A stretch of 64,000 nt of DNA from Candidatus Omnitrophota bacterium (GCA_028715785.1 JAQURC010000003.1:91423-155422), one strand, 5' to 3'. Shown: positions 1 to 61,335, counted from the first letter of the stretch. Notes: generated from the sequence alone by a model not told the origin. Numbers and translations: made by a program.

Positions 1-43
1 TATTTTTTATCGGTTATTCTTGTTAAAAAATAGAACCGTCCCC
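1..43. repeat. Partial or degenerate family C arm (AAAAAATAGAACCGTCCCC)
   Basis: It matches the right outer arm of C2/C3. The remainder, if present, lies off the window. Confidence 0.35.
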
Positions 44-65: not shown

Positions 66-473
66 TTATAATGGTGTAAGCACTCCACCTGTGGTTGCGG
101 TATAGGTAATACTACCAGTAGCTGCGCTGGTTGGCGTAGCCGCAAAGATATAACCGCCTGAAGTTAAAGTACAGGCATAGTTATAACCCTGCACAGGAGT
201 AAGCCCGCCAGCATTATTAGCGCAATAACTGCCTGCAGAAGCGATAAAATCTTGCAGGTTGCCGGCTCCCAATACATCTGTAGGATATGCGCCGCTATGG
301 CTGGTTGAGAAGGTTTCTGCTGCGGTAGATAAAGTACGCACGGTTGCTTTGGCTGCCGCTTCATTAGCCGTCCTTCTTGCGCTAAGCAAATTAGGAACTG
401 CGATCGCGGCTAACAAGGCGATAATCGCCACCACTATCATGATTTCGACGAGTGTAAAACCTTTCCTATTCAT
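66..473 (-). CDS. Type IV pilin (PilA-like major pilin), prepilin N-terminal methylation motif
   Basis: N-terminus MNRKGFTLVEIMIVVAIIALLAAIA is a class III signal peptide (G-F-T-L-x-E). The C-terminal region has two Cys, typical of the pilin D-loop. It has its own TTGACA-17-TAAATT promoter upstream. Confidence 0.8.
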   Translation of the reverse strand: MNRKGFTLVEIMIVVAIIALLAAIAVPNLLSARRTANEAAAKATVRTLSTAAETFSTSHSGAYPTDVLGAGNLQDFIASAGSYCANNAGGLTPVQGYNYACTLTSGGYIFAATPTSAATGSITYTATTGGVLTPL

Positions 474-3482: not shown

Positions 3483-3500
3483 AATAATCTCTTAAAATCC

Positions 3501-3576
3501 GTGTCATTGCGAGCCCGAAGGGCCAAGCAATCTAATAAAAGATTGCTTCGTCGCCTACGGCTCCTCGCAATGACAC
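3501..3576. repeat. Family A palindromic intergenic repeat, copy A1
   Basis: GTGTCATTGCGAG...GAAGCAATC-loop-GATTGCTTCG...CTCGCAATGACAC. The right arm is the exact reverse complement of the left arm of copy A2. Confidence 0.85.
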
Positions 3577-5064: not shown

Positions 5065-5901
5065 TTAAGATAAATAATCGGCTGCCATATATGAGCTGCG
5101 CACATATGGAGCGCTTTCGATATGCAGAAAACCTAACTCTCTGGCTTTCTCTCTATAGTAATCAAACTGCTCCGGCTGAATATATTCTTTAACCGGATAA
5201 TGCTCTTTACTGGGCGCCAGATACTGGCCGATACTCAAAAAATCGCATCCTACATAACGCAGGTCTTGCATCAGATAAAGAATTTCTTCTTCTTTTTCGC
5301 CTAAACCCAGCATCAGCCCGGATTTTATCTTTAAACCGGGCGATATTTTATTTATCGTATGCAGCAAACTAAGCGAACCTAAATAATCCGCTCCCTGGCG
5401 CACCTGTTTATAAAGTGACGGGACTGTTTCAAGATTATGGGCAATGATATCCGGTTTTGAGTCAGCGACAATTTTTAAGGCATCCAAAGAAAGCCCAAAA
5501 TCCGGAATCAGGGTTTCTATGCTTACCTGGGGTGATTTTTCCCTGATCCGCCTGACCGTCTGGGCAAAAAGCGCAGCTCCTCCGTCGGCAAGATCATCGC
5601 GGGTAACACTGGTAATCACAACATGCTTTAAATCAAGTTCTTTGACCGCCTGCGCAACACGGTCCGGCTCATTTAAATCAGGCTCAAGCGGTCTAGACTT
5701 CTTTATATTACAAAAACTGCACCGGCGCGTGCAATTACGGCCCAGGATCAAAAATGTCGCTTCATTGCGGGCAAAACATTCCCCCATATTCGGGCACATC
5801 GCCTGCTCGCAGACAGTTTCCACGCCCAAACCGCGCAAAGTATTTTTCATCACGGAACAGCTCCTAAGATTGATTTTTTTATTAAGCCAGGCAGGTTTCA
5901 T
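5065..5901 (-). CDS. lipA: Lipoyl synthase
   Basis: KPAWLNKKI N-terminal motif, CxxxCxxC radical-SAM cluster (CTRRCSFC) and a second Cys cluster (CEQAMCPNMGEC). Confidence 0.85.
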   Translation of the reverse strand: MKPAWLNKKINLRSCSVMKNTLRGLGVETVCEQAMCPNMGECFARNEATFLILGRNCTRRCSFCNIKKSRPLEPDLNEPDRVAQAVKELDLKHVVITSVTRDDLADGGAALFAQTVRRIREKSPQVSIETLIPDFGLSLDALKIVADSKPDIIAHNLETVPSLYKQVRQGADYLGSLSLLHTINKISPGLKIKSGLMLGLGEKEEEILYLMQDLRYVGCDFLSIGQYLAPSKEHYPVKEYIQPEQFDYYREKARELGFLHIESAPYVRSSYMAADYLS

Positions 5902-6669: not shown

Positions 6670-8136
6670 TTAATCGGGAAACAGGGCCAGTGGTTTCCAG
6701 TTAAGGTCCGGCTGGCGCGCTGCCCTTACTTCATCAAGGCGCTTTATCGGCATCCTAAGCGGCGCTGCGGTTACAGCAGAAGGATTTTCTTCTGCCAAAC
6801 GGGCGATCTCAATCATTGCCTCGATAAAAGCATCGATGGTTTCTTTTGATTCTGTTTCCGTCGGTTCAATCATCAACGCCTCTTTAACAATTAAAGGAAA
6901 ATATATCGTCGGCGGATGGAATCCTCGATCAATTAAATATTTGGCAATATCTAAAGCATGCACTCCATTCTTTGCCTGCCGGCTGGCGGAAAATACGCAT
7001 TCATGCATGCATGTTTTGTTAAAAGGCAGGTCATAATATTTTTTGAGTTTTGCCTGGCAATAATTGGCATTTAATACCGCGATTTCAGCCGCTTTAATCA
7101 AGCCTTCCCTGCCCAGATGCAGGATATACGCATAGGCCTTGAGAATTACGCCGAAATTCCCGTAAAAAGGGGCGATATAACCGATGGATTTTGGCTGATG
7201 GTAATCAAGGGCGAATGTCCCGTCGGCTCTGCGGATGACCCGGGAGATCGGCAAGAACTCAATTAATTTTTCGTTTACTCCCACCGGCCCCGCTCCGGGG
7301 CCTCCGCCTCCGTGGGGAGTAGCGAATGTCTTATGTAAATTTATATGCATGACATCAAAACCAATATCCCCGGGGCGGCATTTGCCCAGCATGGCGTTAA
7401 GGTTGGCTCCGTCGTAATACATCAACGCCCCGCACGCATGCGCCAAGTCAGCGATCTCTTTGATCCGCGGGTTAAAAATTCCCAGCGTATCCGGGCAGGT
7501 CAACATCACCGCCGCCAGCTCTTCGGTTAAATGTTTTTTGTATTCGACTAAATCCATATAGCCATCCGAACCTGTGGGAATAACAACAACCTCATAACCG
7601 GCAATGGCGGCACTTGAGGGATTTGTCCCATGCGATGAATCCGGGACAATCACATATTTACGCCGGGAACCTTTATTTTTGTGGTAGGCGGCAATCAGCA
7701 TTACTCCGGTTAACTCACCATGAGCGCCGGCCAAAGGCTGCATGGTAAAAGCGCTCATCCCGGTAATTTCACAAAGCAGTTTCTCGGATTCATACAGGAC
7801 CTCTAAAGACCCCTGCGCAAGCATGCCCCCTCCTGAAAGTTGCGGCAATAACGGATGCAGCTGAGAAAATCCATCTAAGGAAGCGATCTGCTCGCAAAAT
7901 TTTGGATTATATTTCATTGTGCAGGAACCAAGCGGATAGAAATTTGTGTCTACGGAATAATTAAGCCGGGAAAGATTGGTATAATGGCGGATGACATCTA
8001 ATTCACTAAGGCAGGCTAAATGCGCCTGGCGCTTGCGGCAATATTTTTCCGCCAAAGGCTTTGCTTTGCCAACATCGCAGTCGCCGTATGAAAAACCCCG
8101 CCGGCCTTCCTTATGTTTCTCAAAAATTAATTTCAT
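6670..8136 (-). CDS. gcvPB: Glycine dehydrogenase (decarboxylating) subunit 2
   Basis: P-protein C-terminal half, with the PLP Lys region HINLHKTF. Confidence 0.9.
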   Translation of the reverse strand: MKLIFEKHKEGRRGFSYGDCDVGKAKPLAEKYCRKRQAHLACLSELDVIRHYTNLSRLNYSVDTNFYPLGSCTMKYNPKFCEQIASLDGFSQLHPLLPQLSGGGMLAQGSLEVLYESEKLLCEITGMSAFTMQPLAGAHGELTGVMLIAAYHKNKGSRRKYVIVPDSSHGTNPSSAAIAGYEVVVIPTGSDGYMDLVEYKKHLTEELAAVMLTCPDTLGIFNPRIKEIADLAHACGALMYYDGANLNAMLGKCRPGDIGFDVMHINLHKTFATPHGGGGPGAGPVGVNEKLIEFLPISRVIRRADGTFALDYHQPKSIGYIAPFYGNFGVILKAYAYILHLGREGLIKAAEIAVLNANYCQAKLKKYYDLPFNKTCMHECVFSASRQAKNGVHALDIAKYLIDRGFHPPTIYFPLIVKEALMIEPTETESKETIDAFIEAMIEIARLAEENPSAVTAAPLRMPIKRLDEVRAARQPDLNWKPLALFPD

Positions 8137-9875: not shown

Positions 9876-9956
9876 GTCATTGCGAGGAGCCGTAGGCGAC
9901 GAAGCAATCTTTAAAAGCAAGATTGCTTCGGCACTTCTCGTGCCTCGCAATGACAC
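9876..9956. repeat. Family A palindromic intergenic repeat, copy A2
   Basis: Same termini and inner stem as A1. It lies between the gcvT stop and the gcvH RBS. Confidence 0.85.
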
Positions 9957-31344: not shown

Positions 31345-31373
31345 AATTAGAACATAACAAATTAATGTTGTCA
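31345..31373 (-). promoter_or_regulatory. Sigma70-like promoter TTGACA-17-TCTAAT for the HTH-pilMN operon
   Basis: Read on the minus strand. Confidence 0.45.
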
Positions 31374-31429
31374 AGTGTTTTTTAATATAATATTACTTAC
31401 ATTTACTTAGAATAGTTAGCAAGAAAAAA

Positions 31430-31509
31430 GGGGACGGTTCTATTTTTTGTGCTTTGTAGCTGACGTTTAAACGTCAGCTACTCTGTGGATAAAAAACAGA
31501 ACCGTCCCC
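31430..31509. repeat. Family C nested-palindrome element, copy C2
   Basis: GGGGACGGTTCT...GTAGCTGACGTTTAAACGTCAGCTAC...AGAACCGTCCCC. Flanking A- and T-runs give a bidirectional terminator-like structure. Confidence 0.85.
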
Positions 31510-31556
31510 TTTATTTACCTAAACTTACTTAGATTATAATATTTTGTTAAACAACC

Positions 31557-31943
31557 TTATTGAGGTGTGTAGGTATAGATCGCTTTAGCGCTTATTTTCC
31601 TTGTGCCGGAAACTCCTGACCCAAGATCATAGACAGTGATATCGACTCGTTGAATTGAGTTTGGCAGGCTTAGGATATTGATATCGCAGGCGCTCTTACA
31701 CATAGTCTTGGTATATTGTCCGCTAGCCGGCCAAAGCACATCATCATTCCTGCGCAGTTTATCCAGAGCGTAGAGCACCCCGGCCTTTGCGGCATATTGA
31801 GCCTGAATTCGGCTTAATTGGTGGTGGGTCAGGCGTGACTGATTGGATATGATTCTTAGGATGACAATGGTCAGCATTGCCACGACCATAATCACCCCGA
31901 TAACAATAAAAAGGATTACCCCCTTTTTATTACAATTAGGCAT
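31557..31943 (-). CDS. PilX-like minor pilin-associated protein
   Basis: N-terminal TM segment then QSRLTHHQLSRIQAQYAAKAGVLYALDKL, resembling PilX_N. Confidence 0.5.
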   Translation of the reverse strand: MPNCNKKGVILFIVIGVIMVVAMLTIVILRIISNQSRLTHHQLSRIQAQYAAKAGVLYALDKLRRNDDVLWPASGQYTKTMCKSACDINILSLPNSIQRVDITVYDLGSGVSGTRKISAKAIYTYTPQ

Positions 31944-32142
31944 CTTTCCTCAGTGAAATTCGATAATCATTATCTTTTTTCACTAAAATGACGTGGCCTT
32001 CCCGGGCAAGCCAGCCTAAGCTCATCAGAATATTTTCAGGCGTACGATCAAGCTCCCTGGTTAAGTCACTTAAAGTAACCTCGCCTTTTTGATCCAGGTA
32101 GTGCCAAATTTCACCAGCAACTATACCGATCTCAATAATCAT
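31936..32142 (-). CDS. Small winged-helix protein (DUF2582-like)
   Basis: 68 aa with LGWLAREGHV, typical of DUF2582 wHTH. Confidence 0.5.
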   Translation of the reverse strand: MIIEIGIVAGEIWHYLDQKGEVTLSDLTRELDRTPENILMSLGWLAREGHVILVKKDNDYRISLRKDA

Positions 32143-32202
32143 CTTATCCTACCCTCCTCCATATATTTACATTTATTCTATAAACATTCAAGAATAAGTC
32201 AA

Positions 32203-34470
32203 CTAGTTTTTTGAATTTATCCACTCAACTCTTTCCTGGGCAAATTTTGCCTCTTGGCCGCCTTGTTCGATAATCCGTTTATAAATCTCCAGAGCCTGTT
32301 TAAAACTTTCCTTATCTTCATAAAGTTTGGCTGCGCGTAAAAGCGAGCGCGCCAGTAAATCCGGCGATTGCGGATAGAGATCGGCTGCCAAAAGATATTG
32401 TTTAGCTGCCGCGTCAAACTCTGAATTGGCTTCAAGTGCCTCGGCTAAATTAAAGCGGATATCGGCGGTATCCTTAACATCCGACCGCTCAAGGCTTTTG
32501 GCATAATAAAGTTTAGCTCCTTCATAATCACCCAGCTTATATGAAGTTAAACCCAGGGCGTAAAATGCGTCGGCAGACAGCCGGCTGTCCGGAAAATCTT
32601 TTGTCAAAGAAGCAAAATACCTGCGGGCAAGTTCCAGATTATTACCCCGGTAATAATACTGGCCAAGCCACCACATAATATCCGCGGTTATGCTTGAATT
32701 GGGGTATTTGGCCCGTAAAAGCTTAAACAGCCTAAGCGCTTCATCCTTTTGGCCTAATTTATAATAACAATCCGCGATCTCATATTCGATTTTTTGCAGT
32801 AATTCAATATCCTGGGGACAAAGCTTAAGGGCATCCTTAAAAATATCAAGGGCTTCATTGATTTTTCCCAAACCAAGAAATGCTGTGCCCAACGTATAAA
32901 ATGCCTGGGGGGCCAACGGGTTATCCTTAAATTCATCCTGGAACCTAGAGAGAACCCGGCAACTTGCCGGATAATCCGCTTTCTGGAAATACGCCATTCC
33001 CAAAGAATAAACTGCATCGGCCAGGAATTTTGACTGCGGATAATTTTTTATCATGAGTTTAAAAGAACTGATTGCCCGATCATGCTCTGAATTTTTTAAT
33101 TGTAAAGATCCAAGTTGATATTGGGCATAGTCCGGATAAGCCGAATCCGGATAAAGTTTTATAATTTTGGCGTAAACTTCTTGCGCTTTTACAAAATCAT
33201 TTGCCTCCTGATAAGCCTGGGCTAGCTGAAAAAGCGCCTGAGCCTTAACGGACGGATTATTACTTTCTCCGGCGATACCTTCAAAAACATCTATGCCTGG
33301 CTTGACCTGGCCTTCTTTTATATAAGCTAAACCCAGGTTATAACGTAACTTATCGGCTAACTCATCCGGTATGCCAATCTGCCTGTCCGGCTGGGCGCCC
33401 AATTTATCAACCTTATCCAACCCTTCTTTATAGACATTTACTGCCTGAGCGTATTCATTCAAGTTATAAAGCGCATCGGCACGGCCCAAATACGCCTGAA
33501 TACCTATTAACGGATCAGTGCTTATATCGATAAGCTGTTCATAGAGCCTCTTTGCCTCATAGATGCGGTTAGTCGAAGACATCAATAACGCCCGGCCCAA
33601 TATAAGGATATCCAAACTTTTTTTATCCAGGCTGTTTTGATTAATATCCGCCAATATCTCTTCGGCTTCCTTGTACCTGGCAAGTTTAAGGTAAGACCAG
33701 CCTAATCCTAACTTCGCCAATGCCTGGACATTCTGTTCTTTAGAGATTTGCGCTGACTTAGAGTAATCTCTAGCCGCCTCATTAAAATTATCCAGATAAT
33801 ATTCGGACTCCGCCAGGTAAAAATACAGGTAGGGCAGGCGTAAGCTGTCATTGGCATAAAGCTTAAGGATGGGCTTGATCCTGTCCTTTAATTCCGGGTA
33901 CTCTTTAAGATTATATAAACATTCGATTAATTTAAAAGCGGCGTCTTTACTCTGGGGCTCGCCGGGAAATTTTTCTAACAAGCTTTTAAAGGTTTGCACT
34001 GCCTGGCTGTATTTACCAATCTGCGATAACGACCAACCCAGCGAATAATACGCCGCGGCAGCATAGGGAGATTGAGGGAATTGGGCGATTAGTTTTTGGT
34101 AAAACGCGGATGCTTTTTCAAAGTTGCCGCCTTTAAAATGCACTTCGGCCATCCAAAAATAAATGGCATCTTTAAAACCGCGGCAGGCCGGATCATTGAG
34201 CAACCTTTCGAAAATATTCAGCGCTTCAAGGTAGCGGCCTTGCTGAAAATAGCATTGTCCGCTTAAAAGGCGGGCTTGGTTAAGTTCGGATGAATCAGCA
34301 TACTCTTTCTGAAACCTTTCCAGCATTCCCAGGCTGACTTCATAGAACCCGTCTTCATATGCCTTTCTGGCCATAAAAAGTAGTTCAGTTTCCTTGGCGT
34401 TTTCATAAGCAAAACAAGCTGGAGATAAAAACAACAGGAATATAGATACGCAAACAATTATTTTTTTCAT
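32203..34470 (-). CDS. Large secreted tetratricopeptide-repeat protein
   Basis: Signal peptide followed by more than 15 TPR-like repeats. Confidence 0.8.
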   Translation of the reverse strand: MKKIIVCVSIFLLFLSPACFAYENAKETELLFMARKAYEDGFYEVSLGMLERFQKEYADSSELNQARLLSGQCYFQQGRYLEALNIFERLLNDPACRGFKDAIYFWMAEVHFKGGNFEKASAFYQKLIAQFPQSPYAAAAYYSLGWSLSQIGKYSQAVQTFKSLLEKFPGEPQSKDAAFKLIECLYNLKEYPELKDRIKPILKLYANDSLRLPYLYFYLAESEYYLDNFNEAARDYSKSAQISKEQNVQALAKLGLGWSYLKLARYKEAEEILADINQNSLDKKSLDILILGRALLMSSTNRIYEAKRLYEQLIDISTDPLIGIQAYLGRADALYNLNEYAQAVNVYKEGLDKVDKLGAQPDRQIGIPDELADKLRYNLGLAYIKEGQVKPGIDVFEGIAGESNNPSVKAQALFQLAQAYQEANDFVKAQEVYAKIIKLYPDSAYPDYAQYQLGSLQLKNSEHDRAISSFKLMIKNYPQSKFLADAVYSLGMAYFQKADYPASCRVLSRFQDEFKDNPLAPQAFYTLGTAFLGLGKINEALDIFKDALKLCPQDIELLQKIEYEIADCYYKLGQKDEALRLFKLLRAKYPNSSITADIMWWLGQYYYRGNNLELARRYFASLTKDFPDSRLSADAFYALGLTSYKLGDYEGAKLYYAKSLERSDVKDTADIRFNLAEALEANSEFDAAAKQYLLAADLYPQSPDLLARSLLRAAKLYEDKESFKQALEIYKRIIEQGGQEAKFAQERVEWINSKN

Positions 34471-37272
34471 TTATTTATTAAGGCAACTTTTAAGGAATTT
34501 AGCGGTATATGAATTTCCTATTTTTACCAATTCTTCCGGGCTGCAAGCGGCAACAACCTCTCCGCCCTTGTCTCCGCCTTCAGGCCCAAGGTCAATAATA
34601 TAATCGGCGCATTTAATTACCTCCAGGTTGTGCTCAACTACCACTACGGTATTGCCGCATTCAACCAGCCTCTGCAGGACCGAGATTAATCTGGCGACAT
34701 CGGCAAAATGCAGGCCGGTTGTAGGCTCATCCAAAAGATAAAGTGTCCTGCCTGTGGAACGCTTGGATAACTCTGAAGAGAGCTTGATTCTTTGGGCTTC
34801 TCCTCCGGATAAAGTAGTGGCGCTCTGCCCCAACTGGAGGTAGCCTAAACCGACATCGGATAAATATCCCAGAGTATTTTTTATCTTGGGAATATTACTG
34901 AATAGTTCCAAGGCGTCTTCAATAGTCATTTCCAAGACATCCGCGATGGACCTGCCTTTATACTTTACCTCTAAGGTGGCGTTGTTAAACCTTAAGCCCT
35001 TACACAAATCGCATTTTACGTAGACATCCGGAAGAAAATGCATCTCTATTTTCTTGATGCCGTCACCTTCGCAGGATTCGCAGCGGCCGCCTTTGACATT
35101 AAATGAAAACCTCCCCGGTTTATAGCCCCTAAGCCTGGCTTCAGGAAGCTGGGAAAATAAATCCCTTATGTGGCCGAATACCCCGGTATAAGTAACCGGG
35201 TTTGACCGCGGAGTCCTGCCAATGGGAGATTGGTCAACTACAATCACCTGGTCGATCTCCTGGACGCCGGTTATGGATTTAAATGCGCCGGGTTTTTCTT
35301 TAGACCTATAGATCTTGCGGGCCAAAGCCGGGTAGAGTATGTTACTAATTAGTGTGGACTTGCCTGAACCCGATACGCCGGTCACGCAAATAAGCGTGCC
35401 TAAAGGAAAACGCAGATCAATATTTTTCAGGTTATGCTCGCTGACCCCCTTTATTTCAATATACCTGGCTTTTTGCCATGGCCGCCGGTTTACCGGCGCC
35501 TGGATCAAAAGGTCGCCGCGCAGATATTTTGCGGTCAAGGAATTTTCATCCTTTAAAAGTTCTTCTTTATTTCCGGAAAAGATGACTTTGCCGCCGCCCC
35601 TTCCTGCCCCCGGGCCTAAATCCACAACAAAATCTGCGGCAAGAATAGTAGGAGCATCATGCTCAACCACGATTAAAGTATTTCCCAAATCCCTTAAAGT
35701 CTTTAAGGTTGAAAGCAGCTTTTGATTATCTCGCTGATGCAGGCCAATGCTGGGCTCATCCAAAACATACAGAACTCCGACCAGGCCGCTGCCAACTTGG
35801 GTAGCCAGGCGGATTCTCTGGGCCTCCCCGCCGGATAGAGTAGAACTCTTGCGGTCCAAAGTCAAATAATCCAAACCAACATCCGCGCAGAATTTTAATT
35901 TTCGAGCTATCTCTTTTAATGCCTGATAACCGACCAACTTTTCTTTTTCAGTCAACTTAAGGGCAGAGAAAAAACTTAACGCTTCTTTTATGGACAGCTG
36001 AGTAATCTGCCAGATATTTTTTTGATTAATTATTACTGCCAGGCTCTCCGGTTTAAGCCGGGCGCCTTTACATGCCGGGCAGGCAAGACTGGACATAAAC
36101 TTACTTATCTCTTCCTTAAGATAATCGCTGTCGGTCTGATGGAATAATCTTTCTAAATGCGGAATAACCCCTTCAAAAGGCTTATTGCCAACAACCTCAT
36201 CGCTGCCGTAAAGAATAGCTTTTTGCGCAGGCTTGGGTAATTTATTAAAAGGTGTATCCATGTCAAATTTTAGGCGCGAACTTAACTCCCGGATAAGCCA
36301 GCGGTAATAAAGGATGTAGCCCCTGCCGCCGCGCCTCCACGGCTCAAGGGCCCCGGCGTTAATACTTTTATTTTTATCCGGGATGATTAAATCCGGGTCA
36401 AATTTAAGTTTGGTCCCCAAACCGTTACATTCAGAGCAAGCCCCGTAAGGAGAGTTGAATGAAAAATTCCGCGGGTTAATCTGCGCATAGCTTATGCCGC
36501 ACTTTAAGCAGGCATATTGTTCGCTAAAAATTAGATCCTTAGAGACGCCTCTACTGATAATCACCGTGCCTTTGCCAACTTTTAAAGCAGTTTCAATGGA
36601 ATCGGTAAGCCGCTTGGCTGCGTCGGACTTAATATTAAGACGGTCAACCACTATTTCAATATTATGGATTTTATATTTTGCTAATTTTATCTTTGCGCCA
36701 AGTTCATAAATTTTACCGTCCACCCTGGCGCGCACAAATCCGGCTTTTTGAATCTGCAGAAAAATATCCCTGTGCTGGCCCTTCTTCCCTTGTATCAAAG
36801 GAGCCAATATCTGTATATCCTGGTTTGCCAGAGCGCTCTTAACCGCCTCAATTATCTCCTGGGCGCTCTGGCTTTGAATCGGGGCGCCGCATTTATAGCA
36901 ATGGACATTGCCGATCCTGGCAAATAACAACCTTAAATAATCATAGATCTCGGTTTGCGTGGCAACGGTTGAGCGCGGATTTCCTCCGGCAGAACGCTGT
37001 TGGATAGCAATCGCAGGAGACAGGCCTGAGATAAAATCCACATCCGGTTTCTGCAGCTGCTCCAGGAACTGGCGGGCATAGCTGGAGAGGCTTTCGACAA
37101 ACCTGCGCTGGCCCTCGGCATAAATGGTGTCAAAGGCAAGGCTGGATTTTCCTGAGCCGGATAAACCGGTCACAACGATTAGCTTGTTGCGCGGCAGCTC
37201 CAGGTTGATATTTTTAAGGTTATGCTCTTTTGCCCCGCGGATAATAATATTTTGGTTTTCCATAATCAGCAT
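34471..37272 (-). CDS. uvrA: Excinuclease ABC subunit A
   Basis: Two ABC modules and zinc-finger Cys clusters. The start may be the ATG at 37261. Confidence 0.95.
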   Translation of the reverse strand: MLIMENQNIIIRGAKEHNLKNINLELPRNKLIVVTGLSGSGKSSLAFDTIYAEGQRRFVESLSSYARQFLEQLQKPDVDFISGLSPAIAIQQRSAGGNPRSTVATQTEIYDYLRLLFARIGNVHCYKCGAPIQSQSAQEIIEAVKSALANQDIQILAPLIQGKKGQHRDIFLQIQKAGFVRARVDGKIYELGAKIKLAKYKIHNIEIVVDRLNIKSDAAKRLTDSIETALKVGKGTVIISRGVSKDLIFSEQYACLKCGISYAQINPRNFSFNSPYGACSECNGLGTKLKFDPDLIIPDKNKSINAGALEPWRRGGRGYILYYRWLIRELSSRLKFDMDTPFNKLPKPAQKAILYGSDEVVGNKPFEGVIPHLERLFHQTDSDYLKEEISKFMSSLACPACKGARLKPESLAVIINQKNIWQITQLSIKEALSFFSALKLTEKEKLVGYQALKEIARKLKFCADVGLDYLTLDRKSSTLSGGEAQRIRLATQVGSGLVGVLYVLDEPSIGLHQRDNQKLLSTLKTLRDLGNTLIVVEHDAPTILAADFVVDLGPGAGRGGGKVIFSGNKEELLKDENSLTAKYLRGDLLIQAPVNRRPWQKARYIEIKGVSEHNLKNIDLRFPLGTLICVTGVSGSGKSTLISNILYPALARKIYRSKEKPGAFKSITGVQEIDQVIVVDQSPIGRTPRSNPVTYTGVFGHIRDLFSQLPEARLRGYKPGRFSFNVKGGRCESCEGDGIKKIEMHFLPDVYVKCDLCKGLRFNNATLEVKYKGRSIADVLEMTIEDALELFSNIPKIKNTLGYLSDVGLGYLQLGQSATTLSGGEAQRIKLSSELSKRSTGRTLYLLDEPTTGLHFADVARLISVLQRLVECGNTVVVVEHNLEVIKCADYIIDLGPEGGDKGGEVVAACSPEELVKIGNSYTAKFLKSCLNK

Positions 37273-37279
37273 TAAAAAC

Positions 37280-37360
37280 AGGGACGGTTCTGTTTTTTTG
37301 TACTTTGTAGCTGACGTTTAAACGTCAGCTACTCTGTGGATAAAAAATAGAACCGTCCCC
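37280..37360. repeat. Family C nested-palindrome element, copy C3
   Basis: Near-identical to C2. It ends 8 nt before the uvrA start codon. Confidence 0.85.
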
Positions 37361-37372
37361 ATGTTTCTAAAA

Positions 37373-37612
37373 TTACTTCTTTTTCTTCTTTCCGCCTCTT
37401 TTCATCTTAGCGCAAGAAATATCGCCCTTCTTGTCCAAGAAATAAAGGTATCCTACTTTTCTCTTGATGCCGCATTTGGCTACCTTCTTGGGGCTGCCCC
37501 CTTTTTTAGCGCCTCTTGCCATTTTTGCGCAGGAAACATCCCCTTGCTTGTCAATATAATAGAGATAACCTTTTTCCCTTTTGACACCCACCTTCATCAC
37601 TTTATCAGCCAT
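37373..37612 (-). CDS. Small lysine-rich protein with an internal tandem duplication, uncharacterised
   Basis: 79 aa. It contains two ~35-aa repeats, K(R/V)xVGYLY(Y/F)(I/L)DK(Q/K)GD(V/I)SCAKM(A/K)RG. An SD AAGGGGGTG precedes the ATG at 37612. Confidence 0.5.
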   Translation of the reverse strand: MADKVMKVGVKREKGYLYYIDKQGDVSCAKMARGAKKGGSPKKVAKCGIKRKVGYLYFLDKKGDISCAKMKRGGKKKKK

Positions 37613-37645
37613 CTTTGTACTCACCCCCTTTCGTCTGTTAATTAA

Positions 37646-47225: not shown

Positions 47226-47390
47226 TTAGCGGGTTTGGCGAGTCTTGTTCTCGCATCACCGCTTGCTGTCCCCAGCGTGGACAGCTGCGCTTCAGTAAAA
47301 TTCTCGCTCTGCCGGAACATCTATGGCGGGCAGCCCTGCCCGCTCGAATTTTAAGATGCTGCTCGAATCAAGCCTCGCCGCCCGCTAAGC
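47226..47390 (+). repeat. Family B structured intergenic repeat, copy B1
   Basis: CTTAGCGGG...CCCGCTAAG terminal inverted repeat with nested stems. It lies between the argF stop and the argG RBS. Confidence 0.85.
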
Positions 47391-48308
47391 TTAACCCTTA
47401 AGCAACTTAATCAAAATCGCCTTTTGCACATGCATCCTGTTTTCCGCCTGATCAAAAACAATCGAATTTTTACTGTCCATAACCTCATCGGTTATTTCTT
47501 CGCCTCGATGGGCGGGCAAACAGTGCATAACCAAAACTCCCGGCGCCGCGTTTGCTAAAAGCTTGGCATTGATCTGAAAATCCTTAAAGATAATTTTTCG
47601 CTTGGCGATCTCCTCTTCCTGTCCCATGCTGGCCCAAACATCAGCGTAAATTACATTGGCACCTTTGACTGCGCTAACCGGATCTTCGGTAATTTTTATC
47701 TTGCTGCCCGTCTCTTTGGCGATCTCCTGCGCATACTTAACTACCTGCTCATCCGGAAAGTAACCTTTGGGGCTAGCCACGGTAATATTCATTCCGGTTT
47801 TAGCTGCCGCAAAGAGCAGGGAATTACAAACATTATTGCCGTCGCCGACATAAACCAGGGTGACATTTTTCAAGTCTTTCAATTTCTCTTTAATCGTAAA
47901 AAGATCAGCCAGTCCCTGGCAAGGATGCGAAAAATCCGACAAACCGTTGATCACCGGAACGGTCGCGGCGGTAGCCATATCCAAACAATTCTTATGTTCA
48001 AAGGTCCTTAAAACAATCCCGTCAACATAGCGGGAAATAGTTTTAGCCACATCCCTTACGCTCTCTCTTACGCCGATATTAATCTCAGCAGGCGATAGAT
48101 ACAGGGAATTCCCTCCCAACTGATACATGCCGACCTCGAAAGAGACCCGTGTCCTGTTCGACGGTTTCTGAAAAATCAAGGCCAAAGTTTTACCGGATAA
48201 TACCTTGCTGAATTTCTTTTTATTCTTCTTGAGCAGGGCGGAAAGCTTAAAAATAGAATCGATCTCCCCTAAAGTTAGATCCCTGATTGAAAGCAGGTCC
48301 TTTTTCAT
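47391..48308 (-). CDS. argF: Ornithine carbamoyltransferase
   Basis: STRTR and HCLP motifs. Confidence 0.9.
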   Translation of the reverse strand: MKKDLLSIRDLTLGEIDSIFKLSALLKKNKKKFSKVLSGKTLALIFQKPSNRTRVSFEVGMYQLGGNSLYLSPAEINIGVRESVRDVAKTISRYVDGIVLRTFEHKNCLDMATAATVPVINGLSDFSHPCQGLADLFTIKEKLKDLKNVTLVYVGDGNNVCNSLLFAAAKTGMNITVASPKGYFPDEQVVKYAQEIAKETGSKIKITEDPVSAVKGANVIYADVWASMGQEEEIAKRKIIFKDFQINAKLLANAAPGVLVMHCLPAHRGEEITDEVMDSKNSIVFDQAENRMHVQKAILIKLLKG

Positions 48309-52672: not shown

Positions 52673-52841
52673 TTATGCGGGTCCTGTCGAGCCTTGTCTC
52701 TCACCGCACCGCTTGCTCGCCCCAGCGTGGCGAGCTGCGCTTCGGCAAAAATTCTCGCTCTGCCGAGACATTTAGTGCGGGCAACCCTGCCCGCTCGAAT
52801 TTTTGAGATGCTGTTCGAGTCCAAGGCTCGCCACCCGCTAA
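52673..52841 (+). repeat. Family B structured intergenic repeat, copy B2
   Basis: Aligns with B1 and B3 along its whole length, with compensatory stem changes. Confidence 0.85.
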
Positions 52842-53153: not shown

Positions 53154-53549
53154 TTACCTCTTTGTCCACTGGAAGCGTTTACGCGCCCCTTTGAGCCCGT
53201 ATTTCTTACGCTCCTTCATCCGCGGATCACGCGTTAAATACCCGTTCTTACGGAATATTGCCTTAAAATTTTCATCCGCATTTAAAAGCGCGCGGGCAAT
53301 ACCCAAACGTAAAGCCCCAGCCTGGCCGGTCAATCCGCCGCCAGCAAGCCTGGCGGCAATATTAAATTTACCCGTGCTTTCCGTAAGCGCCAAAGGCTGT
53401 AAAACAATAATCCGGTCTGTTTCACGCAGGAAATATTTCTCAAAAGGCCGCCCGTTAACCGTAATCAAGCCGGTACCCGGCTCCATACGTACCCTGGCGG
53501 TTGATTCCTTGCGCCTGCCCAATGCTATATATTTAGTTGACTCGCTCAT
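53154..53549 (-). CDS. rpsI: 30S ribosomal protein S9
   Basis: C-terminal KYGLKGARKRFQWTKR. Confidence 0.95.
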   Translation of the reverse strand: MSESTKYIALGRRKESTARVRMEPGTGLITVNGRPFEKYFLRETDRIIVLQPLALTESTGKFNIAARLAGGGLTGQAGALRLGIARALLNADENFKAIFRKNGYLTRDPRMKERKKYGLKGARKRFQWTKR

Positions 53550-53986
53550 TATTTCCTGGCCTCCAAAACAACAGGCTTTATACCGGTTAAATCATGCTTA
53601 TCATCGGCAAAAACCCTTAATTTTTTAATTAAATCCCTTCCTAGCGGGCCTGAAGGCAGCATCCTCTGAACGGCTAACTGCATAACGGTAGCCGGCTTTT
53701 TAGCCAAAAGCACCTCCAGCTTTACTTCACGTAAGCCTCCCGGATACCCGGAATACCGGCGATAGACCTTCTGTTTAAGCTTTCGCCCGGTGACCTTAAT
53801 CTGGCTGGCATTGATCACAATTACCCCGTCACCGGTATCCAGATGCGGAGTAAAAATCGGCTTATGCTTGCCTCTTAAGATCGTGGCAATCCTGGCTGCC
53901 AGCCTTCCCAAAGTCTGGCCTTTGGCATCAGCAATATACCACTTCATTTTAATGTCTTCCGGTTTGGCTGTATATGTCTTTTTCAT
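53549..53986 (-). CDS. rplM: 50S ribosomal protein L13
   Basis: L13 family. Confidence 0.95.
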   Translation of the reverse strand: MKKTYTAKPEDIKMKWYIADAKGQTLGRLAARIATILRGKHKPIFTPHLDTGDGVIVINASQIKVTGRKLKQKVYRRYSGYPGGLREVKLEVLLAKKPATVMQLAVQRMLPSGPLGRDLIKKLRVFADDKHDLTGIKPVVLEARK

Positions 53987-53995
53987 AGAAAAATA

Positions 53996-54023
53996 AGTAT
54001 AACAGAATAATTTATAAAGTCAA
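53996..54023 (-). promoter_or_regulatory. Possible promoter TTGACT-16-TATACT directly upstream of rplM
   Basis: Read on the minus strand. There are only 9 nt between the -10 element and the ATG, so the mRNA would be near-leaderless. Confidence 0.3.
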
Positions 54024-54032
54024 ATAGATTTT

Positions 54033-55812: not shown

Positions 55813-55968
55813 TTAGCGGGTCCTGCCGAGACTTGTTCTCGCCGCACCGCTTGCTCGCCCCAGCGTGGCTCGCTGCGCTTCGGTAAAATTCTCGCTCTCC
55901 GCCTTCGGCGGAACCGTGCCCGCTCGAATTTTAAGATGCCGCTCGAATCAAGTCTCGTCACCCGCTAG
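55813..55968 (+). repeat. Family B structured intergenic repeat, copy B3
   Basis: It lies between the leuB stop and the asd RBS. Confidence 0.85.
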
Positions 55969-57596: not shown

Positions 57597-57609
57597 AGTA
57601 AATAAATTT

Positions 57610-57684
57610 GTGTCATTGCGAGCCCGCAGGGCGAAGCAATCCCGCTTTTAAGATTGCTTCGTCGCTTTGCTCCTCGCAATGACA
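57610..57684. repeat. Family A palindromic intergenic repeat, copy A4
   Basis: The leuC stop lies in its loop. Confidence 0.85.
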
Positions 57685-61303: not shown

Positions 61304-61335
61304 ACAGTAGGGGAGGTTTAAACCTCCCCTACTGT
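61304..61335. repeat. 32-bp perfect palindrome ACAGTAGGGGAGGTTTAAACCTCCCCTACTGT
   Basis: Centred on GTTTAAAC, in the fabD-fabG intergenic gap. Confidence 0.9.

Follow-up and report, generated by a model that had tools for sequence, protein, structure and literature searches.

A REP family of Candidatus Omnitrophota and its probable nesting in terminator-like hairpins, one of them near uvrA

Introduction

Repetitive extragenic palindromes (REPs) are short multicopy palindromes between genes that carry a GTAG at the foot of a hairpin with a perfect stem; the loop is conserved together with the GTAG. They occupy co-directional or convergent gaps, and inverted REPs bracket the gene of the REP-associated tyrosine transposase (RAYT), as described for the group 3 systems of Stenotrophomonas maltophilia and Marinomonas and for TnpA_REP of E. 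coli (4ER8). In group 3 systems, the REPs are perfect palindromes in which the GTAG and particular loop bases are critical, the stem has to pair although its sequence matters little, and cleavage occurs at a CT adjacent to the hairpin (PMC8266576). GTAG-tagged REPs have been described from the Planctomycetes-Verrucomicrobia-Chlamydiae (PVC) superphylum, and REPs nested in host palindromes with many empty targets are known from T. roseum, A. variabilis, and H. neapolitanus (PMC3733652). In the literature that we searched, no paper joins Omnitrophota with extragenic palindromes, and we found no description of REP/RAYT for this phylum; papers naming both do not treat the subject in title or abstract. 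Here, we analyze a stretch of 64,000 nucleotides from a Candidatus Omnitrophota bacterium (GCA_028715785.1 JAQURC010000003.1:91423-155422; the whole stretch is called the window below). It contains two composite repeats of ~86 nt (31424–31509 and 37275–37360), each with an exact 26-bp palindrome within inverted arms of 12–19 bp. We conclude that the inner palindrome is the REP of a REP/RAYT system in Omnitrophota. The composite very probably represents two unrelated repeats, a REP nested within a terminator-like hairpin, and not a switch that controls uvrA.

The family described here shares with these systems the multicopy extragenic palindrome with GTAG at the foot of a perfect stem, the conserved loop, the placement between genes, and the bracketed transposase gene, and departs from them in several respects. 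GTAG is paired with CTAC so that both strands show the same GTAG-plus-hairpin, the stem comprises 11–13 bp in contrast to 6–9 bp in most families, and an extra 11-nt flank (TGTGGATAACT), which equals a DnaA box, confers polarity. Furthermore, the host belongs to the Omnitrophota, and the copy number is apparently tens, not hundreds, per genome. The nesting resembles the target palindromes of Di Nocera et al. (2013), i.e., those of Thermomicrobium roseum (GTAG-23 in CCGSSCC...GGSSCGG), Anabaena variabilis (GTAG-15), and Halothiobacillus neapolitanus (CGTC-1), in that the REP is central in a larger unrelated palindrome and, as in T. roseum, many host copies are empty. Unlike in those cases, the host palindrome is terminator-like with A/T tracts, and only 8 of 60 REPs are nested.

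The Inner Palindrome Is a REP

The two near-identical palindrome-bearing elements with A/T runs that a preliminary description of the window reported are present as placed, with 87% identity over 86 nt in an ungapped alignment. The palindrome GTAGCTGACGTTTAAACGTCAGCTAC is exact in both (Table 1) and found no match in 100 shuffles of the window. Scanning one genome per species with its 20-bp core yielded 35 loci, 33 of which lie in ~15 Candidatus Omnitrophota metagenome-assembled genomes (MAGs). Related DNA stretches returned by this and the other genome-collection and metagenome scans carry L numbers below (L005, L026, L057, etc.). In the 305 kb made up of the window and these loci, almost entirely Candidatus Omnitrophota DNA, a search for near-perfect palindromes finds 60 units. 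Their common form is GTAG-N5-GTTTAAAC-N5'-CTAC, usually with NN-TGTGGATAACT on one side, and conservation thus extends past the search pattern.

The stem is variable and its pairing is not. At least nine variants occur, including CTGAC, GGGAC, GGGAG, GGTGG, CGGAG, CGGAC, GTGAC, and CCGAC, each perfectly compensated in the other arm, and several of them coexist within one MAG. GTAG, the apex GTTTAAAC, and CTAC are kept across these variants. In the alignment, 7 of the 11 stem pairs are changed on both sides around an invariant GTTTAAAC apex, and GTAG, present in >90% of copies, is base-paired with CTAC and hence found on both strands. As family members were gathered by their palindromy, the percentage of paired cells is circular; an independent check starts from the flanking box TGTGGATAA. 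Its exact 9-mer occurs 39 times in the 305 kb (~2.3 expected by chance), and 35 of these occurrences adjoin a REP hairpin. Between CTAC and the box, most copies have a YT dinucleotide (CT or TT). A fixed foot and apex with a free yet paired stem point to selection by a hairpin-recognizing enzyme rather than by a dimeric binder of double-stranded DNA, and agree with the recognition determinants of group 3 RAYTs (PMC8266576).

The placement of the copies is that of an extragenic repeat. All 37 CTGAC-type copies are intergenic, many of them filling spaces of only 40–70 nt that separate co-directional genes, and the two orientations are of similar frequency. The genes that start beside 20 REP copies are functionally unrelated and none serves repair. 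They encode an ABC ATPase, MiaB-like and other radical SAM enzymes, an L,D-transpeptidase, SpoVG, a nucleoside phosphorylase, a pilin, SecY, GltX, MnmA, a PP-loop (TilS-like) protein, and an acyl-CoA dehydrogenase.

RAYT Genes Bracketed by Inverted REPs

In three MAGs, an inverted pair of hairpin-plus-box units encloses a RAYT gene, with the boxes towards the gene (L026 1633–2124, L014 6040–6528, and L010/L011, which are two parts of one contig). The 163-aa open reading frame (ORF) of L026 is preceded by the unit GTAGCGGAG...CTAC-CT-TGTGGATAACT-ATG and followed by TAA-GTTATCCACA-GA-GTAGCTGAC...CTAC; in the RAYT loci, 1–3 nt separate the box from the start codon of the RAYT. The L026 protein matches Pfam Y1_Tnp (5.6e-12). 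With the NCBIfam model of REP-associated tyrosine transposases (NF047646, REP_Tyr_transpos; cut-off 80 bits), the L026 and L014 proteins score 119 and 118 bits, respectively, in contrast to 28 and 22 bits with the IS200 model. Among solved structures, E. coli TnpA_REP (4ER8) is closest to the L026 protein, whose EHLHLI and YIHNNPV align to it as the HUH and Tyr motifs. The bracketed RAYT loci are of REPtron architecture.

Like IS200/IS605 elements and their palindrome-associated derivatives, these loci combine a Y1 HUH transposase for single-stranded DNA hairpins with hairpins near both gene ends. Besides the model scores, they differ in that the flanking hairpins are inverted, not direct, and, in the DNA examined, the hairpin units far outnumber the transposase genes. 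The only other Y1 homolog (L008 3520–3948, 35% identity) has neither REPs nor outer arms beside it. The compensated stem, the intergenic position in either orientation, the unrelated neighbors, and the inverted copies around a RAYT gene together identify the inner palindrome as a REP.

Several REP loci show further peculiarities. The GGTGG sub-family (L015, L030, L033) has a TTAATAAAAG flank, often on both sides, which resembles the flank of the window hairpin at 61307–61332, where TGTTAAAAG replaces the TGTGGATAAC box. The GGGAG and GGTGG flanks suggest that a further REP sub-family exists, which may have a RAYT of its own. At L021 (2332–2373), a REP overlaps the stop of a 147-aa ORF by 4 nt on one side and borders secY on the other, where its box ends 1 nt before the called ATG. 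Hence, REPs are tolerated even in an apparently tight core operon without room for a ribosome-binding site. In L008, a 139-nt direct repeat (5620–5758 and 7588–7726, 94% identical) that starts at a REP flanks a two-gene cassette for an AbiEi_2-like protein and an NTP_transf_8 nucleotidyltransferase, reminiscent of type IV toxin-antitoxin pairs; recombination or integration may have taken place at the REP-containing sequence. In three MAGs, a conserved MKK(I/V)FIKTFG stretch follows the REP, at L005 (4015–4080), L020 (1860–1926, minus strand), and L032 (~5212–5260), with TGG as the next codon in L020, TGA in L005 and L032, and more stops in L005. Ahead of radical SAM genes, this stretch is a conserved leader, either non-coding or encoding a short peptide. 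We rejected selenocysteine in the short ORF of L005 and L032, as the translation has several stops and L020 has TGG at this codon.

The Outer Hairpin Resembles a Terminator

The outer hairpin, which is typical of the lineage, starts with an A-tract and ends with a T-tract; between them, a 12-bp GC-rich stem (GGGGACGGTTCT) lengthened by a T6–7/A6–7 run encloses the loop. The arm AGAACCGTCCCC occurs five times in the window at no more than one mismatch (0.18 expected). The 12-bp inverted repeats named in the preliminary description are thus found, albeit with one mismatch in the left arm of copy 2 (AGGGACGGTTCT). Either strand of the composites is predicted to fold into a single long hairpin (−47 to −54 kcal/mol, z about −9 to −11).

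The outer hairpin exists independently of the REP. At the left window edge, the preliminary description saw a half-copy of the composite, which turns out not to be a truncated element: positions 1–8 (TATTTTTT) pair with 25–32 (AAAAAATA), running on into AGAACCGTCCCC, so that the same outer hairpin is formed around a 16-nt loop lacking the inner palindrome. It sits 3' of a lone pilin gene (66–473, minus strand). In other genomes, hairpins of this family, GGGGACGGTTCTATTTTTT...AAAAAATAGAACCGTCCCC or, as the 12-bp stem alone, GGGGACGGTTCT...AGAACCGTCCCC, hold loops of 6–60 nt around an invariant stem. REP-less copies are found in L012, L017, L022, L028, L037, L038 (five in 7.8 kb), L049, L057, L069, and L110, and the arms GGGGGCGG/CCGCCCCC and GACGCTTC/GAAGCGTC are compensated variants. 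The two modules of the composite are therefore separable.

Position and anatomy fit an intrinsic terminator. None of 20 complete outer hairpins in related DNA lies within an ORF, 14 lie in co-directional gaps, often 2–25 nt from the following start codon, and 16 in co-directional or convergent gaps. All credible genes of the window are on the minus strand, and each of the three window copies follows a minus-strand stop codon. Read on this strand, copy 1 ends ...AGAACCGUCCCC-UUUUUUCUUG and copy 2 ...CCGUCCCU-GUUUUUAAUG, i.e., as a stem-loop followed by a U-tract. The terminator scan scores loops of ≤8 nt only, and the composite hairpins fall outside its range. The outer arms and A/T tracts look like a terminator that is readable on both strands, as the preliminary description had held, and transcripts may well end here. 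Copy 1 separates the stop codon of a 128-aa ORF from an HTH_17 gene, after which pilM/N follow, and copy 2 separates that of an 83-aa two-repeat basic protein gene from uvrA. The small repeat-protein gene is thus as previously described, whereas the supposed pilX upstream of copy 1 is the 128-aa ORF, with a minor-pilin-like N-terminus that is weak. The promoter-like site downstream of copy 1 (Table 1) would be consistent with this copy ending the upstream transcription unit.

Uptake sequences of competent bacteria offer a comparison for the arms. Inverted pairs of the DNA uptake sequence (DUS) of Neisseria and the uptake signal sequence (USS) of Pasteurellaceae act as terminators; these sequences are very frequent, mostly single, and found also within genes. 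An invariant 12-mer stem, variable loops, a position 3' of genes, and type IV pilus genes in the host are shared with DUS/USS. In contrast to these, the 12-mer is rarely single, absent from the ORFs of the examined DNA, and mostly present at ~1 per 20 kb. Of the 34 exact 12-mers found in 857 kb, three are clearly single and 29 have an inverted counterpart no more than 130 nt away, and the unit is thus the hairpin, not the 12-mer. We therefore rejected a DNA uptake sequence as the main reading of the 12-mer, which is nearly always paired.

Among the relatives, L038 (85% UvrA identity) has five GGGGACGGTTCT hairpins in 7.8 kb (301–333, 1213–1267, 2112–2141, 5403–5457, and 7762 to the end), each with a different loop, which is a far higher density than the three in the 64-kb window. 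The same stem occurs in L069 and L110 (56–63% UvrA identity), and an invariant stem is thus combined with free loops even at this distance. Conserved to 56% UvrA identity, the GGGGACGGTTCT stem could conceivably, though improbably, be a sequence-specific signal beyond a mere stem.

Searches of Rfam (E ≤ 1 for the region, gathering thresholds for the whole window) left the elements unmatched and returned only a chance snoRNA-like match and one tRNA. In viral contigs, the REP-plus-box pattern had 0 matches and the outer arm one, which gives no link to phages.

The uvrA Start Region

The preliminary description had copy 2 end 8 nt before the uvrA ATG. The first in-frame ATG (37272) lies 7 nt from the arm, whereas homolog N-termini fit the second (37263), which is 16 nt from it (MENQNI in the window, MENQNL in L036). 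A Shine-Dalgarno-like motif precedes ~27 of the 64 window genes. A metagenome scan for UvrA returned 80 loci. In many of the closer relatives, uvrA follows a small basic protein gene (ending ...CAKMKRGGKKKK before the stop) with a hairpin in between, and the synteny is that of the window. At the orthologous site of L057 (72% UvrA identity), the outer hairpin is as in the window but holds a 17-nt loop and no REP, and L049 has a compensated variant of it. The hairpin is different in almost every relative, suggesting rapid terminator turnover at the uvrA site. A hairpin close to the uvrA start is common among relatives and not created by the composite.

In 13 relatives (L036–L059 range), the terminator of the small basic protein gene leads straight into a T-run, which is followed by GGTATAAT, GTTATAAT, or a similar hexamer ((G)GTATAAT/TATAAT) and, after 6–9 nt, by the uvrA ATG, all within ~60 nt before the ATG. 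Since standard promoter spacing puts the transcript start at or next to the ATG, we infer that an extended −10 promoter yields uvrA mRNA with no leader or almost none. A tight, leaderless start is probably typical of this locus among relatives. In the window, TTTAAT would be the degenerate, weaker counterpart of TATAAT; the promoter scan listed no promoter between copy 2 and uvrA. Elsewhere in the window, a 145-aa gene (53549–53986, minus strand; region 53549–54030) has the textbook leaderless geometry TTGACT-17 nt-TATACT-9 nt-ATG, which supports leaderless starts in the source genome.

Origin of the Nesting

Among the nested units, the spacers between arm and REP are alike within a genome (GTGCTTT/GTACTTT in the window, CATTATAATAAGG in L022/L025, ATTATGACTCA in the C19 MAG) and unlike between genomes. 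The right junction GGAT/AAAAAAT (slash at the junction) is identical in all nested copies. The common spacers indicate that, within each genome, one hairpin passed its filled loop on to another, by movement of the whole unit or through gene conversion.

A plausible sequence of events is as follows. The REP hairpin would fold in single-stranded DNA, and a RAYT encoded elsewhere in the genome would recognize its GTAG and loop and copy it. One such copy may have inserted into the loop at the tip of a terminator hairpin and would do no harm there because the stem-loop is merely lengthened. The filled loop could then have reached a second terminator, moving as a whole or through gene conversion via the ~25-bp conserved arms. 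In RNA, the composite would still form a stem-loop followed by a U-tract where the upstream gene ends. uvrA would not be regulated by it and would probably be expressed from a leaderless or near-leaderless mRNA, starting from the weak −10 (TTTAAT) between the hairpin and ATG 37263, and/or by read-through.

Several observations weigh against this account. Neither a target-site duplication nor an insertion junction was found, and the tested REP-plus-box boundaries show no excess of direct repeats of 2–4 nt. The REP family was not seen in 549 kb of relatives' uvrA loci, which makes it patchy among relatives. The 64-kb window has no RAYT gene, so that mobilization in trans in the source genome is inferred only. 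L057 is a distant relative and its whole loop differs, so there is no clean insertion footprint. The −10 candidate TTTAAT does not have the key A at position 2. Moreover, the GTAG REPs described so far have an unpaired tag at one end (PMC3733652), whereas GTAG is paired here. We also rejected a miniature inverted-repeat transposable element, as no target-site duplication was found at REP plus box and the repeats that flank the outer hairpin are complementary instead of direct.

Alternative Explanations

A perfect 26-bp palindrome conserved across species, with one copy at the distance from the uvrA start (16 nt upstream) at which an SOS operator is expected, resembles the LexA/SOS operators upstream of uvrA. 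The preliminary description therefore saw in the inner TGACGT-N4-ACGTCA the operator of a dimeric protein placed to control uvrA. Nevertheless, a double-stranded operator of a dimeric regulator (LexA-like or other) for uvrA and further genes is highly improbable. The center of the half-site varies with compensation in at least nine variants, several of them in one genome, copies face either way and frequently lie at the 3' ends of genes or within operons, e.g., directly before secY, and the palindrome brackets RAYT genes. A search and tabulation of downstream genes of the kind proposed as a check returned the 60 copies in 305 kb, with unrelated neighbors (20 genes, none for repair), on which grounds we rejected an SOS or LexA-type regulon. 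Likewise, the proposed comparison of uvrA upstream regions revealed that at least 30 relatives lack the palindrome at this locus and have other hairpins, or the outer hairpin without it, so that control of uvrA by the palindrome is not supported. We regard it as unlikely, too, that the element is kept for a role in RNA, e.g., protection of mRNA 3' ends from exonucleases or processing by RNase III or another enzyme, with the REP origin being incidental. The coding-strand RNA hairpins are predicted to be very stable (−47 to −54 kcal/mol), copies in short co-directional gaps must be transcribed, and REPs, mostly downstream of coding regions, are proposed as RNA elements (PMC3733652). However, the orientation relative to transcription is unbiased, and the asymmetric box is kept in both orientations, which argues for a constraint at the DNA level; in addition, no Rfam family matches, and relatives have ordinary unrelated hairpins at the same site.

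It is similarly doubtful that the whole ~86-nt composite is mobile, with the outer arms as terminal inverted repeats (TIRs) of a non-autonomous element, e.g., one served by a TIR-associated tyrosine transposase (TIRYT), and the REP incidental in its middle. The shared spacers within a genome, the constant right junction, and the turnover of uvrA-upstream hairpins between relatives would fit, as would the start of the arm (GGGGACGG), which is close to GGGGWSAS of the TIRs flanking TIRYT genes (PMC3733652). Yet loops of 6–60 nt on an unchanging stem are not what copy-and-paste would yield, target-site duplications were not found, a search of 857 kb revealed no transposase gene bracketed by outer arms, and gene conversion via the conserved arms accounts equally well for the common spacers. 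A functional role of the box has to be considered as well. The 9-mer TGTGGATAA (complement TTATCCACA), which equals the canonical high-affinity DnaA box, is matched exactly at 35 REP copies, including both window copies. The polarity-giving 11-nt flank AGTTATCCACA might thus be a working DnaA box that couples a domesticated transposase system to the replication initiator, with REP copies acting in datA-like titration or in a replication-linked control of RAYT. The strong enrichment of the box at REPs (35 of 39, with ~2.3 occurrences expected) and its position 1–3 nt from the RAYT start, with four boxes clustered within 600 nt, would be in line with this. In the loci examined, however, use of the box by Omnitrophota DnaA finds no support, and the flank may instead be the recognition or cleavage context of RAYT, given the CT or TT between hairpin and box. 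We hold the DnaA interpretation to be less likely still than the two preceding ones.

On the level of single loci, four TTATCCACA-type boxes (≤1 mismatch) lie within ~600 nt each at L014 (6027–6628) and L026 (1554–2134). The REP boxes thus create a four-box cluster per RAYT locus, which a naive origin-finding scan would call oriC-like. In the Omnitrophota loci, oriC-like clusters of DnaA boxes were found only at the RAYT loci themselves and at L113, a distant locus without REPs.

Feature Positions and Other Repeats

Table 1. Positions of the composite repeats, their parts, and neighboring features in the window.
Feature	Position	Strand	Remarks
Third outer hairpin, REP-less	1..43		TATTTTTT, 16-nt loop, AAAAAATAGAACCGTCCCC; GC-rich left arm beyond window edge
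Promoter-like TTGACA-17 nt-TCTAAT	31346..31374	-	Downstream of copy 1, ahead of HTH_17/pilM genes; read from sequence
Copy 1, outer left arm	31424..31448		A-tract 31424–31429 + GGGGACGGTTCTATTTTTT
Copy 1, spacer GTGCTTT, outer arm to REP	31449..31455		Copy 2 near-identical; nested copies of other genomes differ
Copy 1, REP hairpin	31456..31481		GTAG-CTGAC-GTTTAAAC-GTCAG-CTAC; 11-bp stem, TTAA loop
Copy 1, REP flanking box TGTGGATAA	31484..31492	+	Terminal AA runs into outer right arm
Copy 1, outer right arm AAAAAACAGAACCGTCCCC + T-tract TTTATTT	31491..31516		Minus strand: hairpin, then UUUUUUCUUG
Probable uvrA start, ATG 37263–37261 + TTTAAT 37276–37271, 7 nt upstream	37261..37276	-	
Copy 2, outer left arm	37274..37299		AAAAAC + AGGGACGGTTCTGTTTTTTT
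Copy 2, spacer GTACTTT	37300..37306		
Copy 2, REP hairpin	37307..37332		Identical to copy 1 REP hairpin
Copy 2, REP flanking box TGTGGATAA	37335..37343	+	
Copy 2, outer right arm AAAAAATAGAACCGTCCCC	37342..37360		L057 orthologous hairpin: same arms, no REP
Small two-repeat basic protein gene	37373..37624	-	Ends ...CAKMKRGGKKKKK before the stop; copy 2 at its 3' end
Third REP-family hairpin, un-nested	61307..61332		GTAG-GGGAG-GTTTAAAC-CTCCC-CTAC; flank TGTTAAAAG

The window harbors two further repeat families. An unrelated family of GC-rich intergenic repeats of ~150 nt (47236–47387, 52686–52803, and 55824–55967) has 60–91% identity and no Rfam match. A palindromic family is based on GTGTCATTGCGAGC...GCAATC and its complement (3495–3576, 9919–9956, and 57604–57641) and also occurs upstream of minus-strand gene starts (genes ending at 48308 and 9850). 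ctcgcaatgacac lies within 45 nt of four start codons, often immediately upstream.

Implications

Analysis of the family and of related loci removes the tempting reading of the palindrome as a uvrA operator. At uvrA itself, the relatives suggest a −10 directly after the upstream terminator and an essentially leaderless mRNA. REPs in terminator loops can mislead the prediction of promoters, operators, and terminators in the annotation of MAGs. If the flank were indeed a DnaA box in use, DnaA bound by the RAYT start could tie the expression of RAYT to the phase of replication, in which hairpins are exposed as single strands, and the tens of dispersed REPs could be a DnaA-titrating set built by a transposase. 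What is still unusual about the family is the GTAG/CTAC symmetry, the one-sided 11-nt flank that equals a DnaA box, and the stem of the host hairpin that is invariant across distant relatives. These traits do not suffice for claiming a novel system of regulation. The known range of REP/RAYT systems gains Candidatus Omnitrophota, an uncultured PVC-related phylum. With GTAG and the GTTTAAAC apex fixed, a stem that is free but paired, and an unusual one-sided flank, the family constitutes a natural experiment on how RAYTs read their targets.

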